Source of the DNA: Escherichia coli
Lineage (GTDB): Bacteria; Pseudomonadota; Gammaproteobacteria; Enterobacterales; Enterobacteriaceae
Direction: 5' to 3' (one strand)
Length of the DNA: 64,000 nucleotides
NCBI RefSeq assembly: GCF_003334405.1
Contig: NZ_QOWM01000008.1
Shown: positions 29,482 to 57,338 of the stretch, in pieces
How the letters are laid out: every line of letters begins with the position of its first letter
How positions within the stretch are numbered: the first letter of the stretch is position 1
Notes under the pieces: generated by a model
What the model was told of the DNA's origin: nothing
Seen by the model: the letters and a program-made list of their open reading frames with translations, nothing else
Databases searched by the model: none
Position numbers and translations under genes: made by a program

Positions 29482-30513
29482 TTAGCGACCCTGTTCCGGC
29501 GGTGTAATGTTATCCATATACAGCGTCTGGCTGGGGAAGGCAAAGTCCGCGCCGTGTGACTGTACAATATCGATAATCTTCAAATAAACGTCTTGCTGTG
29601 CAGCAAGCCATTCAGCCCATACCGTGGTTTTGGTAAAGCAATAAACCATAATATTCAATGAAGAGTCAGCAAACTGGTTGAAATAAACCAGTAAGGTTTG
29701 TCGCTGGTCGATGGCCGGGTGATTTTTCAGCATCTCACGTACAGCTTCGACAATAACGCCCACTTTTGCCGCATCCTCATAACGTAAACCAATGGTCGTG
29801 GTAATGCGGCGGTTGGTCATTCGTCCTGGGTTTTCTACGCTGATCGACGAAAACAGCGAGTTCGGTACGTACAATGGACGATTATCAAAGGTCGTAATTT
29901 TGGTAATTCGCCAGCCAATTTCCGCTACTGTACCTTCGATATTTCTGTCCGGTGAACGGATCCAGTCGCCAATACTGAAAGGACGGTCGAAATAGAGCAT
30001 AATCCCGGAAAAGAAGTTACTCAGAATATCTTTACCGGCCATACCGACAGCCAGACCACCAATACCACCAAAGGTCAGCAAGCCAGAAAGGCTCATGCCG
30101 AAATGTTCGCCATAAAGCAGAACAAGCACCACAATAATGGTGATTTTGATGATACGCGACATAATCCGCGCACTGGTGATATCGCGACCTTTTTTAATCT
30201 GCTGTTTTTCAAACTGATTAATCAGCAGAAATAGCTTAATCGTCAGAATAACCGCAATCAGGGACGTACAGATAAAATCGATAACGCCTGGGGTGATAAA
30301 TTTGAGTTTATAGTTTTCTATAACATAATTAATAATGCTACCAACAGCACTGATAATTATGGTGTAGATTAAAAATTGCACCGCATGGAATAAAAATCCT
30401 TTTCTTTTACGATTTCCACGGCGAAACCAAAAGCTCATCAGAATCAATGCTGCGCAGCTACCGAAAATAATGACCAGATTAAGCGCATTATTTGTAAACA
30501 GTTCAGCGATCAT
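29482..30513 (-). CDS. ynaI: MscS-family low-conductance mechanosensitive channel
   Basis: 343-aa ORF with N-terminal TM helices and MscS core. Confidence 0.85.
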
Positions 30514-30756
30514 TGTTTTATCAGGCTCCTCCAGATAATTGTCGTCATGCCGGAAACCCCTGGCGGGGCTATTTTACCGCGACAATTCATTCAGATCATC
30601 AATAGTCAGGGAAGGAAGTAGCAACATTAGCTAACTAATCAATGCGTTGATTGTAAATCCAGCTAAGAGGTGAGGTTTTCAGAGCAGACAACGGTGAAAT
30701 GTCATGGTATTGTTACGTTTAGGTAACAAGAAATTTGTCTGCACAAGGATTACATC

Positions 30757-32165: not shown

Positions 32166-32918
32166 TCAGGCAACGTTACGCGTATGACCAGCAAGCTGGG
32201 CCAGCGCATCGTTATTTTCGATGGTGATGTATTTACCTTTGACTGCCAGCATGCCGCTTTTCTGGAAGCGACCCAGCAGACGGCTGATGGTTTCTACCGT
32301 CAGGCCCAGATAGTTACCGATATCGCCACGAGTCATCGTCAGGCGGAATTCACGAGGGGAGAAGCCGCGTTGGGCAAAACGACGGGACAGGTTGTAGATG
32401 AATGCAGCCAGACGTTCCTCGGCATTTTTCTTCGACAACAGCAGGATCATGTCCTGATCGCCTTTGATTTCACCGCTCATCAGACGCATCATCTGCTGAC
32501 GCAGATTCGGCATTTTACCGGACAAATCGTCCAGCGTTTCGAACGGGATTTCACATACCATCGAGGTTTCCAGCGCCTGCGCGAAGCTCGGGTGATGGCC
32601 GCTGCCGATGGCGTCAAATCCCACCAGGTCGCCTGCTAAATGGAAACCAGTGATTTGCTCGTCGCCTTGCTCAGTGATGGTATAACTTTTAATCGTACCG
32701 GAGCGGATGGCATAAAGCGATTTAAGTTCATCACCAGCCTTAAACAGCGTCTGGCCTTTCTGAATAGGCTTCTTCCGCTCAATGATATTATCAAGCTGAT
32801 CAAGCTCATGTTCGTTGAGTGTGAACGGGATGCAAAGCTGGCTGATGCTGCAATCCTGGCAATGGATAGCACAACCGCCAGACTGAATGCGCCGTATAAT
32901 TCGCTTTTCCGGGATCAT
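32166..32918 (-). CDS. fnr: global anaerobic regulator FNR (CRP family, [4Fe-4S])
   Basis: ORF 32166-32975; start taken at [23 protein letters not shown] (250 aa). Confidence 0.95.
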
Positions 32919-32937: not shown

Positions 32938-32951
32938 TTGATATTTGTCAA
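32938..32951. promoter_or_regulatory. FNR box in fnr promoter (negative autoregulation)
   Basis: TTGATatttGTCAA matches FNR consensus TTGAT-N4-ATCAA; 20-33 bp upstream of fnr start. Confidence 0.65.
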
Positions 32952-33112
32952 TTTTAACATCTTTTTAGGGAGCAAGTAAGTCTAAGCAAACCTTAACAGC
33001 AGAGAATTCCGATATTAGATGTAAATATATGTCTATCTATTTGAAAACCCTTAAGTTGTTAAGGGTAACTTTACATAAAAGTGTGAACAAGCTGGCACAA
33101 ATTGTTTAATGT

Positions 33113-39047: not shown

Positions 39048-39144
39048 ATAAAAAAATAGAGTCTGTCGACATCCGCCAGACTCTACAGTACACACAGCAG
39101 TGCATCCGCGTCTTAAATCCGGCATTGTCTCCTCTGCGCCGGTG
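39048..39144 (-). ncRNA. mcaS: small regulatory RNA McaS (IsrA)
   Basis: Minus-strand transcript would read ACCGGCGCAGAGGAGACAAUGCCGGAUUUAAGACGCGGAUG...GAGUCUGGCGGAUGUCGACAGACUCUAUUUUUUU: several GGA motifs, terminal hairpin and U-run; abgR-smrA intergenic location matches known mcaS locus; ends approximate. Confidence 0.6.
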
Positions 39145-41420: not shown

Positions 41421-42425
<1,005 letters not shown>

Positions 42426-42471
42426 CAAAAGCAATTTTTCCGGCTGTCTGTATACAAAAACGCCGCAAAGT

Positions 42472-42485
42472 TTGAGCGAAGTCAA
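42472..42485 (+). promoter_or_regulatory. FNR box of fnrS promoter (class II, centred about -42)
   Basis: TTGAGcgaaGTCAA; centre is 42.5 bp upstream of inferred fnrS 5' end. Confidence 0.6.
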
Positions 42486-42520
42486 TAAACTCTCTACCCA
42501 TTCAGGGCAATATCTCTCTT

Positions 42521-42642
42521 GCAGGTGAATGCAACGTCAAGCGATGGGCGTTGCGCTCCATATTGTCTTACTTCCTTTTTTGAATTACTGCATAGCACAA
42601 TTGATTCGTACGACGCCGACTTTGATGAGTCGGCTTTTTTTT
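42521..42642 (+). ncRNA. fnrS: FNR-activated small RNA FnrS
   Basis: Recognised sequence GCAGGUGAAUGCAACGUCAAGCGAUGGGCG...; ends in hairpin gacgccgac-tttgatgagt-cggc plus U8; zntB-dbpA intergenic. Confidence 0.7.
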
Positions 42643-42902
42643 GCCTGTTATTTATCAGCGTCTACCCTTTAAGAGTCCACCCAATGACCAGAGGGAAATA
42701 TGACGACACTTATTTATTTGCAAATTCCTGTCCCTGAACCGATTCCTGGCGATCCTGTTCCAGTGCCCGATCCGATCCCTCGCCCGCAACCCATGCCTGA
42801 CCCACCACCCGATGAAGAACCGATTAAATTGTCGCATCGTGAGCGTAGATCTGCGAGGATACGCGCCTGCTAACTTTGCGTCGATGACCACGAGAATAGA
42901 TT

Positions 42903-44276
42903 GTGACCGCTTTTTCTACCCTGAATGTTTTGCCTCCCGCCCAACTCACGAACCTTAATGAGTTGGGTTATTTAACCATGACGCCGGTGCAGGCCGCCGC
43001 GCTTCCGGCGATCCTTGCCGGAAAAGATGTTCGCGTGCAGGCGAAAACCGGCAGCGGCAAAACGGCGGCTTTTGGCCTCGGCTTGTTACAGCAAATTGAT
43101 GCGTCGCTATTTCAAACCCAGGCTTTAGTGCTGTGTCCTACGCGTGAACTGGCGGATCAGGTGGCAGGTGAATTGCGTCGGCTGGCGCGTTTTCTGCCAA
43201 ATACCAAAATTTTGACGTTGTGCGGTGGTCAACCGTTCGGTATGCAGCGTGATTCGTTGCAACATGCGCCGCATATTATCGTGGCAACGCCGGGGCGTTT
43301 GCTGGATCACCTGCAAAAAGGCACGGTATCACTGGATGCGTTGAATACGCTGGTGATGGATGAGGCCGACCGCATGCTGGATATGGGATTTAGCGATGCC
43401 ATTGATGATGTCATCCGTTTTGCGCCTGCATCTCGACAGACGCTTCTGTTTTCGGCAACCTGGCCGGAAGCCATCGCTGCAATCAGCGGACGAGTGCAAC
43501 GCGATCCTTTGGCGATTGAAATTGACTCAACAGATGCTTTGCCACCCATTGAACAACAATTTTATGAGACATCCAGCAAAGGCAAAATTCCTCTGTTGCA
43601 ACGGTTATTAAGCTTGCATCAGCCATCCTCTTGCGTGGTGTTTTGCAATACCAAAAAAGATTGCCAGGCTGTCTGCGACGCGCTGAATGAAGTAGGGCAA
43701 AGTGCATTGTCATTACACGGCGATTTGGAGCAACGCGATCGCGATCAGACCCTGGTACGTTTTGCTAACGGTAGCGCCCGTGTACTGGTCGCGACTGATG
43801 TTGCTGCGCGTGGTCTGGATATTAAATCGCTTGAGCTGGTGGTGAACTTTGAGCTGGCGTGGGACCCTGAAGTTCATGTACATCGCATCGGTCGTACAGC
43901 TCGTGCAGGAAATAGCGGTCTGGCGATCAGTTTCTGTGCTCCGGAAGAAGCACAGCGGGCCAATATCATTTCTGACATGTTGCAGATAAAACTTAACTGG
44001 CAAACGCCGCCAGCTAATAGTTCCATTGCGACGCTGGAAGCAGAAATGGCAACGTTGTGTATCGATGGCGGGAAAAAAGCCAAAATGCGCCCGGGTGATG
44101 TATTAGGTGCACTGACAGGAGATATCGGGCTTGATGGCGCAGATATTGGCAAAATCGCCGTGCATCCGGCGCATGTCTATGTCGCGGTCCGTCAGGCTGT
44201 TGCTCATAAAGCATGGAAACAGTTACAGGGCGGGAAGATTAAAGGAAAAACGTGCCGGGTGCGGTTATTAAAATAA
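42903..44276 (+). CDS. dbpA: ATP-dependent DEAD-box RNA helicase (23S rRNA-specific)
   Basis: 457-aa ORF with GTG start; Walker A AKTGSGKT, DEAD box VMDEAD, SAT motif. Confidence 0.9.
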   Translation: MTAFSTLNVLPPAQLTNLNELGYLTMTPVQAAALPAILAGKDVRVQAKTGSGKTAAFGLGLLQQIDASLFQTQALVLCPTRELADQVAGELRRLARFLPNTKILTLCGGQPFGMQRDSLQHAPHIIVATPGRLLDHLQKGTVSLDALNTLVMDEADRMLDMGFSDAIDDVIRFAPASRQTLLFSATWPEAIAAISGRVQRDPLAIEIDSTDALPPIEQQFYETSSKGKIPLLQRLLSLHQPSSCVVFCNTKKDCQAVCDALNEVGQSALSLHGDLEQRDRDQTLVRFANGSARVLVATDVAARGLDIKSLELVVNFELAWDPEVHVHRIGRTARAGNSGLAISFCAPEEAQRANIISDMLQIKLNWQTPPANSSIATLEAEMATLCIDGGKKAKMRPGDVLGALTGDIGLDGADIGKIAVHPAHVYVAVRQAVAHKAWKQLQGGKIKGKTCRVRLLK

Positions 44277-44404: not shown

Positions 44405-45340
44405 TTATTTCACTTCAACCACATTCAGCCGTAACTCATCCAACTGATTTTCATCTTCTTCTGGCTGCCAGCACGCCGGTTGTAGTGGGATCTCTTCGCG
44501 ATCAAACGCCAGATCACCCCCGTTAACCACTTCAGAACCGTGGGTGATGCCTTTGAAATCGAACAGGTTGGTATCGCACAGATGCGACGGCACCACATTC
44601 TGCATCGCGCTGAACATCGTCTCGATACGCCCTGGATAACGTTTATCCCAGTCACGCAACATGTCAGCAATCACCTGACGTTGCAGGTTAGGCTGTGAAC
44701 CGCACAGGTTGCACGGAATAATCGGGAACGCTTTTGCATCGGCAAATCGCTGAATATCTTTCTCGCGGCAGTAGGCCAGCGGACGAATAACGATATGTTT
44801 GCCATCATCGCTCATCAGTTTCGGAGGCATACCTTTCATCTTACCGCCGTAGAACATATTTAAGAACAACGTTTGCAGGATATCGTCACGATGGTGACCC
44901 AACGCGATCTTCGTCGCCCCCAGTTCCGTTGCGGTACGATAAAGGATACCGCGACGAAGGCGAGAACACAGTGAGCAAGTGGTTTTGCCCTCTGGAATCT
45001 TCTCTTTCACGATACCGTAAGTATTCTCTTCAACAATCTTGTACTCAACGCCCAGCTTTTCAAGATACTCGGGCAGAACGTGTTCCGGGAAGCCCGGTTG
45101 CTTTTGATCGAGGTTAACAGCCACCAGCGAAAAATTGATTGGCGCGCTTTGCTGCAAATTGCGCAGAATCTCCAGCATGGTATAGCTGTCTTTACCCCCG
45201 GAGAGGCAAACCATGATGCGATCGCCTTCTTCAATCATATTGAAGTCAGCAATGGCTTCGCCCACGTTACGACGCAGACGTTTTTGTAATTTGTTCAGAT
45301 TGTATATCTCTTTCTTCGTATTCTTTTGATTTTCTTGCAT
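44405..45340 (-). CDS. ttcA: tRNA-cytidine(32) 2-sulfurtransferase
   Basis: 311-aa ORF with PP-loop SGGKDS and CxxC motifs; known Rac integration target. Confidence 0.9.
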
Positions 45341-46943: not shown

Positions 46944-47144
46944 TCACGACGACTGAAGTTTCTCGCAATTAAAATTTATCAGTTTTACTTTCTGCTCTCT
47001 GGAACCGCCTGCTTCTTTTTTACCTGAGAGCATTTTTTCGCATTCTGATTTGGTTAATTTTGTTTTTGAGTACCTTGTCCAGTTAGTAGGAGTGCCACCT
47101 TCCTTTTCAATAGTGGCGGTAATTTTATACATGAACACCTCCAT
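46944..47144 (-). CDS. ydaC: Rac prophage small protein YdaC-like
   Basis: ORF 46944-47204; start uncertain (M at codon 21 or 25). Confidence 0.5.
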   Translation of the reverse strand: MEVFMYKITATIEKEGGTPTNWTRYSKTKLTKSECEKMLSGKKEAGGSREQKVKLINFNCEKLQSS

Positions 47145-56971: not shown

Positions 56972-57338
56972 GAAAAGTCCTTTTGAACATATAGGAATAT
57001 ATTAGAGCATGAATGTGTGCAATGCATAAAAGAAAAAGCTACCGCAAGGCGACTCCACCCACAGATAGCTCTTAATTGATTGTTTGTAAAAAATAATACA
57101 TTAATTATCTTCTGTGTAAAGAGGGAAACAGCCTTAGGGTAAGGGACACGAGTTGGGGGGATTGGTGAAATTTGCGTTGAGGATAAAACGATTTGCGGGA
57201 AAAGGATAGTTAAGTAGAATTGCTGCGGGTGCTTGAGGCTGTCTGCCTCGGGCATGAACACCAAAGGCAGATAGAGAAAAGCCCCAGTTAACATTACGCG
57301 TCCGGCAAGACGCTTAACATTAATCTGAGGCCACATCT

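Follow-up and report, generated by a model that had tools for sequence, protein, structure and literature searches.

The fnrS gene with its class II FNR site and the autoregulatory FNR site of fnr in a 64-kb stretch of Escherichia coli DNA

The segment at positions 42472-42642 of the window, as we call the whole 64,000-nucleotide stretch of E. coli DNA that was analyzed, raises two questions: whether it is the known small RNA gene fnrS under an FNR-dependent class II promoter, and whether a second, similar box 9.6 kb away belongs to the negatively autoregulated promoter of fnr itself. Both are almost certainly the case. The gene, its FNR site and the fnr operator are textbook biology and no discovery; the sequence-only reading that drew attention to the segment had labelled it known biology, and the label is apt. 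The locus therefore serves as a positive control only, in which a known sRNA, its activator site and the operator of its regulator were placed to the base from sequence alone. FNR occupancy and regulation (PMC3688515), and FNR control and Hfq dependence of the RNA (PMC11572966), are taken from the literature.

Identity and genomic setting of fnrS

The annotated ncRNA gene fnrS of MG1655 (b4699, NC_000913.3 1409129-1409250) aligned to 42521-42642 on the plus strand with 122 of 122 nt identical. When the whole window was scanned against Rfam, RF01796 (FnrS) was found at 42521-42638 (+); it scored 134.8 bits, where the gathering score of the family is 60, and the match covered the covariance model end to end (positions 1-119). 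The sequence-only reading had named the gene fnrS and had offered alignment to the annotated gene as the way to check the name; both the alignment, free of mismatches over 122 nt, and the covariance model confirm it. Complete conservation across species begins at exactly 42521, which is the annotated 5′ end and +1, and this boundary, the b4699 identity and the RF01796 match together place the 122-nt FnrS small regulatory RNA at 42521-42642 (+). In its sequence, its position between zntB and ynaL/dbpA, its 5′ stem-loop, U-rich linker and terminator, and its upstream FNR site, the gene is the same as K-12 fnrS, and no difference was found within it.

The gene order is dgcM, ynaN, zntB, fnrS, ynaL, dbpA, ttcA and then a Rac-type prophage. 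Thus fnrS lies downstream of zntB/ydaN and upstream of ynaL and dbpA, and zntB ends 96 bp before it. MG1655 and the window are colinear here, with 12 mismatches in 14.7 kb, and the 321-bp region around fnrS is exactly alike in the two. Eight of the 12 differences are clustered at 45299-45325, the ttcA/prophage junction. The window is without the K-12 copy of IS5F, which in MG1655 lies upstream of ynaJ and is missing at about 30392-30630.

Of 5426 complete E. coli genomes, 5393 contain the 321-bp fnrS region. With a 63-bp promoter query, 2584 genomes were 100% identical and 2672, i.e., about half, carried 1-3 differences; the one variant genome that was inspected has a T-to-C change at -4 (42517), outside the box. 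Six of 5403 matches to the fnrS region were on plasmid-labelled records. In E. coli strain MEW (NZ_CM192120.1) the T-run of the fnrS terminator is interrupted, at the equivalent of window position 42641, by an IS200C copy, which leaves six T and separates fnrS from ynaL. No fnrS feature was annotated among the 20 RefSeq E. coli matches listed, where the promoter-only query returned "none" and the longer query returned zntB and ynaL; MG1655, by contrast, carries the ncRNA feature fnrS.

The class II FNR site and its conservation across Enterobacterales

From 42472 to 42642 the segment consists of TTGAGCGAAGTCAA, 35 bases that include CAATAT, the RNA beginning GCAGGTGAATGCAACG and finally a GC-rich hairpin followed by eight T, the last of them at 42642. 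The FNR binding site of the fnrS promoter, TTGAGCGAAGTCAA (42472-42485, +), was assigned from its sequence, its agreement with 8 of the 10 positions of TTGAT-N4-ATCAA and its conservation, and it has an intact TTGA-N6-TCAA core. By direct count its centre (42478.5) lies 42.5 bp upstream of +1 (42521), a class II activator position. The invariant A at 42509 and T at 42513, each 99% conserved, define the -10 hexamer CAATAT (42508-42513, +), the first base of which is 29.5 bp from the centre of the box. With the hexamer so predicted, the spacing is that of canonical class II geometry (site at -41.5, -10 from -12). The centre is numbered -42.5 and not the textbook -41.5 because the -10 and the start are separated by one more base than in most such promoters. 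A simple scan of 42300-42800 found no sigma-70-type promoter with a -35 element, and the -35 slot, six bases located 17 bp upstream of the -10, is ATAAAC (2 of 6 matches). The absence of a -35 element is expected for an activator-dependent promoter.

These positions agree with published data. An FNR ChIP-seq peak, direct activation and one site at -42.5 are reported for fnrS (b4699) (PMC3688515, Table 1), where Durand and Storz (2010) and Boysen et al. (2010) are quoted for the expression evidence. The site is within the -41.5 ± 4 window used in that study, in which 19 of 23 FNR-activated promoters of known start have their sites. The sequence-only reading had proposed a class II site centred 42.5 bp upstream of the 5′ end of the RNA; our count gives that distance to the base, the published value is equal, and the 29.5 bp to the -10 bears out the class. 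Its statement that both boxes match TTGAT-N4-ATCAA holds as a near match with the core kept, but neither box is perfect (8/10 at fnrS, 9/10 at fnr).

The fnrS promoter resembles the class II FNR promoters narG, dmsA and nirB (-41.5) in having a single site over the -35 region, no good -35 element and 29.5 bp from the centre of the site to the -10. It differs from them in that the centre is numbered -42.5, that its site matches 8/10 where theirs are near-perfect, and that it carries conserved non-consensus letters, namely the G that is fifth in the left half-site and, within the spacer, a C and an A.

A degenerate pattern that lay within the sRNA and excluded the promoter was used to scan a collection of species-representative genomes. 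This gave 120 loci, all in Enterobacterales (Escherichia, Salmonella, Citrobacter, Enterobacter, Klebsiella, Serratia, Yersinia, Dickeya, Pectobacterium, Erwinia, Pantoea, Edwardsiella, Hafnia, Photorhabdus, Arsenophonus, Sodalis and others). Enough flank was available in 118 sequences (117 loci and the window), 117 of them distinct. All 117 distinct promoters have an FNR-type box that matches 8-9 of the 10 positions, and 116 of them hold it in one register relative to the sRNA start; in the remaining one, from Yersinia artesiana, the register is shifted by 1 nt. The exact TTGA-N6-TCAA core occurs in the window's register in 85 of the 118 sequences, and most of the remainder have CTGATC..ATCAA, mainly in Pantoea, Erwinia and relatives. 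At the left half-site, TTGA accounts for ∼71% of the 117 distinct promoters, with CTGA mainly in Erwiniaceae, TTGC in a few and ATGA in one, and the right half-site is TCAA in essentially all of them. The ten consensus columns average ∼1.7 bits, compared with ∼0.1 bit in the flanks. Such a footprint of 117 promoters is an unusually clean view of the constrained positions, and it could guide promoter-tuning or biosensor work.

Upstream of +1 the conserved positions form four islands: an A-tract (-64 to -61), the box (-49 to -36), TAA (-35 to -33) and G-C-A-n-n-n-T (-14 to -8). In the A-tract (42457-42460, +), A is found in 73-94% of the 117 promoters (0.74-1.67 bits), and it may be that the C-terminal domain of the RNA polymerase alpha subunit docks on this tract, next to the FNR dimer on its upstream side. 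Positions 42457-42460, 42477, 42479 and 42507-42508, which correspond to the A-tract, the spacer C(-44) and A(-42) and the G-C before the A of the -10, are conserved in 73-99% of the 117 promoters, beyond what the FNR and -10 consensus need. We consider it possible, though rather unlikely, that the A-tract, C(-44)/A(-42) and the fixed sub-consensus TTGAG hold conserved information beyond the FNR half-sites. If so, the polymerase alpha subunit might dock at these extra positions, or a second regulatory input, so far undescribed, might act there; in either case the level of active FNR at which fnrS is switched on could be tuned. Known biology would thereby be refined, with no new system involved.

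The linkage of zntB and fnrS was found in nearly all of the ∼120 Enterobacterales loci, with the zntB stop ∼75-140 bp before +1. This arrangement, zntB being immediately upstream on the same strand, and the lack of a terminator between the zntB stop (42425) and fnrS are what one would see if FnrS were processed from the zntB 3′-UTR and were not a primary transcript. We hold such an origin to be very improbable. The activator site and the -10 are both conserved, and each keeps a constant distance from the 5′ end. The box and the sRNA are also intact in Rahnella, Rouxiella and Hafnia psychrotolerans, where zntB lies on the downstream side in convergent orientation. Moreover, fnrS is treated as a directly FNR-activated unit in the published analysis (PMC3688515). 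Read-through from zntB could add a minor longer species to the transcript made from the FNR-dependent promoter. The inverted arrangement was seen in six genomes of these three groups, where zntB ends ∼25 bp past the fnrS terminator; it is convergent yet adjacent, and the zntB-fnrS linkage thus survives inversion.

Motif counts in the window are at the level of chance. The FNR consensus with up to 2 mismatches was observed 51 times (42.3 expected), and TTGA-N6-TCAA exactly twice in 64 kb, at the fnrS and fnr boxes (1.5 expected; at least 2 in 46 of 100 shuffles), so that occurrence alone is not significant. These counts are what a chance match would give, that is, a box of no role in a promoter that is constitutive or otherwise regulated. 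Against that view, which we rate as extremely improbable, stand the near-constant register (116 of 117 distinct sequences, the last 1 nt off) amid unconserved flanks, the published ChIP-seq peak and site call at -42.5 (PMC3688515), and a promoter without a -35 element of its own. The realness of both FNR sites rests on their position, their conservation across species and the published ChIP-seq.

CRP and FNR architectures are related, with 5-bp inverted half-sites at equal spacing, and Durand and Storz reportedly saw lower FnrS levels in crp and arcA mutants. A CRP or mixed CRP/FNR site that responds mainly to carbon source is nonetheless hardly credible, because CRP-type GTGA/TCAC half-sites are found in no species (117 distinct sequences), and FNR ChIP-seq gives the site to FNR (PMC3688515).

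Structure and predicted pairing of the FnrS RNA

The minimum free energy (MFE) fold of FnrS and the Rfam structure are concordant. Both have a 5′ stem-loop (42521-42566, +), an unpaired C/U-rich stretch, CUUACUUCCUUUUUU (42567-42581, +), a small second hairpin and a Rho-independent terminator (42615-42642, +), which the terminator scan resolved into an 8-bp GC-rich stem, a 4-nt loop and T8. A terminator with such a U-tail is typical of Hfq-dependent sRNAs, and FnrS is described as an FNR-controlled, Hfq-dependent RNA that is induced on anaerobic shift and represses genes not needed anaerobically (PMC11572966). The fold is modestly more stable than shuffled sequences (z = -1.67). Of the 101 distinct sRNAs compared, 97-101 retain the stem pairs, apart from the innermost pair of the terminator, which 72 retain. 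The pairs of stem 1 are kept in 100-101 of the 101, with few two-sided changes (CG to UA, GC to AU); the search pattern lay within this stem and partly imposed its conservation, so that only its free positions are informative. Compensatory changes across species are mostly in the terminator stem (AU to GC; CG to UA to GC).

Two segments of FnrS can pair with sodB. The 5′ stem-loop contains a candidate seed at nt 1-8, GCAGGUGA, which is perfectly complementary to sodB +12 to +19; complementarity as good was found in 7 of 1000 shuffled targets. The stem-loop itself was assigned from its conserved pairs and this complementarity. FnrS nt 40-63 can pair across the Shine-Dalgarno sequence and AUG of sodB, which was equalled by 36 of 1000 shuffles. 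The C/U-rich stretch, which is highly conserved, resembles an anti-Shine-Dalgarno sequence, is unpaired in both structures and is predicted to take part in this pairing; it is a candidate seed and Hfq-binding region. Defined segments of FnrS were used here, since RNAduplex with the entire FnrS and sodB returned a structure too full of loops to be realistic. The predicted complementarity fits the published translational repression through more than one seed region. According to Durand and Storz in 2010, sodB is said to be a validated FnrS target.

That the transcript might instead be the mRNA of a small protein deserves almost no credence. The mechanical list of ORFs does contain a 47-codon frame at 42529-42672, with its ATG (42529) after AGGTGA, so that an SD-like AGGUG is just upstream. 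This frame, however, extends past the terminator, and the 122-nt RNA is thus without a stop codon. The AGGUG-AUG spacing is only ∼2 nt, the frame ends at any point from codon 3 to codon 42, or never, across the 118 species genomes because the T-run varies by 1-2 nt, and conservation tracks the RNA stems, with compensatory changes. A coding function of the 42529-42672 ORF was rejected on the grounds that no stop lies inside the RNA and that the frame is not conserved.

For FnrS as a regulatory RNA made from a class II FNR promoter, the following course of events can be proposed. By the established Fe-S chemistry of FNR, the protein would hold a [4Fe-4S] cluster in the absence of oxygen and would dimerise. 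The dimer would occupy TTGAGCGAAGTCAA at -42.5, over the missing -35 element, and, as is known or inferred from the literature on FNR, would contact sigma-70 and the alpha subunit directly and thereby recruit RNA polymerase. Transcription would then run from G 42521 to the terminator at 42615-42642 and yield the 122-nt FnrS. Together with Hfq, FnrS would pair through its 5′ end and the C/U-rich stretch with translation-initiation regions, e.g., that of sodB. Its targets would be mRNAs for functions unneeded anaerobically, the translation of which would be blocked, and FnrS would in this way widen FNR control to genes to which FNR does not bind. Since 2010 FnrS has been known as the branch of the oxygen response through which genes that FNR does not bind come under its repression.

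The fnr promoter and neighbouring features

The fnr coding sequence (32166-32918, -) was placed by the MG1655 annotation, and its 250-aa product does not differ from K-12 FNR. The fnr ATG and the fnrS +1 are 9,603 bp apart, so that the "about 10 kb" of the sequence-only reading is fair. The FNR site at 32938-32951 (-), TTGATATTTGTCAA or, on the coding strand, TTGACAAATATCAA, matches 9 of the 10 consensus positions, keeps the TTGA-N6-TCAA core and lies 20 bp upstream of the fnr ATG, where it would overlap the transcription start (-0.5). Direct repression of fnr (b1334) from a site at -0.5 has been reported (PMC3688515, Table 1); this is the same site, and the earlier designation as the autoregulatory box of fnr is supported. 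In Salmonella enterica subsp. arizonae the start-proximal site of fnr is a perfect 10/10, TTGATAAATATCAA.

On the coding strand, the fnr promoter reads ...GATGTTAAAATTGACAAATATCAATTACGG...ATG. A probable -10 hexamer, TAAAAT (32951-32956, -), was read from the sequence and is kept in Salmonella; it overlaps the FNR site by one base. It would probably occupy -12 to -7 if the fnr start is 32944, as the -0.5 position of the site implies. The simple scan, which is uninformative at fnr, called no full sigma-70 promoter there. An FNR dimer lying across the start would occlude polymerase and limit fnr transcription.

A second, weaker FNR-like site, TTAAGGGTTTTCAA on the coding strand (33041-33054, -), can be read 103 bp upstream of the first, and its counterpart in Salmonella arizonae is TTAAGTATTTTCAA. 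It was absent from the sequence-only reading, and we take it to be the -103.5 site of Mettert and Kiley 2007. The arrangement agrees with the known fnr autoregulation in that one FNR site, published as -0.5, lies 20 bp upstream of the ATG and a second, weak site 103 bp further upstream, and no difference from it was found; the E. coli start-proximal site is 9/10 and that of Salmonella arizonae 10/10. In Salmonella enterica subsp. arizonae, fnr lies ∼4.5 kb from fnrS, compared with 9.6 kb in E. coli. As fnr is near fnrS there too, the neighbourhood is kept and the intervening DNA differs in length.

The loose ends that remain are minor, and consist of the conserved promoter positions that the FNR consensus leaves unexplained and of features nearby. 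A permissive Rfam scan of 42400-43000 returned FnrS only. Downstream of fnrS lie ynaL (42700-42873) and the GTG start of dbpA (42903). YnaL, a small protein without an assigned function, has been validated (PMC6001520). Nucleotide-level conservation of the leader (42700-42915) was seen in 23 Enterobacteriaceae, with conserved blocks at about 42809-42824 and 42845-42863. YnaL-like ORFs share the core DPxPxPDPIPRPQPMPDPPPDEEPIK, an EF-P-type polyproline motif. The leader block ATCTG[AC]GAGGATACGCGC is invariant even in 7 species in which the ORF stops 5-8 nt earlier, and it is thus not conserved for coding alone. RNAalifold gave no convincing covarying structure for the ynaL-dbpA leader blocks. 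The region may be a leader ORF or leader RNA that controls the 23S rRNA helicase DbpA. Directly after the fnrS terminator, and overlapping its T-run, are TTGCCT (42641-42646) and, after a 16-nt spacer, TACCCT (42663-42668), two hexamers that are conserved across Enterobacteriaceae. TTGCCT-N16-TACCCT could be the ynaL-dbpA promoter, the -35 of which would be the tail of the fnrS terminator; the start predicted from it is near 42675.

Four other RNAs scored above their gathering scores in the Rfam scan of the window. McaS was found at 39048-39143 (-; 118.4 bits), and the Rac-type prophage contains a RalA antitoxin RNA (46948-47126, +; 212.5 bits), a sok-type antitoxin RNA (57227-57402, +; 105.2 bits) and STnc100 (60191-60377, +; 83.4 bits). 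The prophage part of the window is 100% identical not to K-12 but to strains such as 64EVA.
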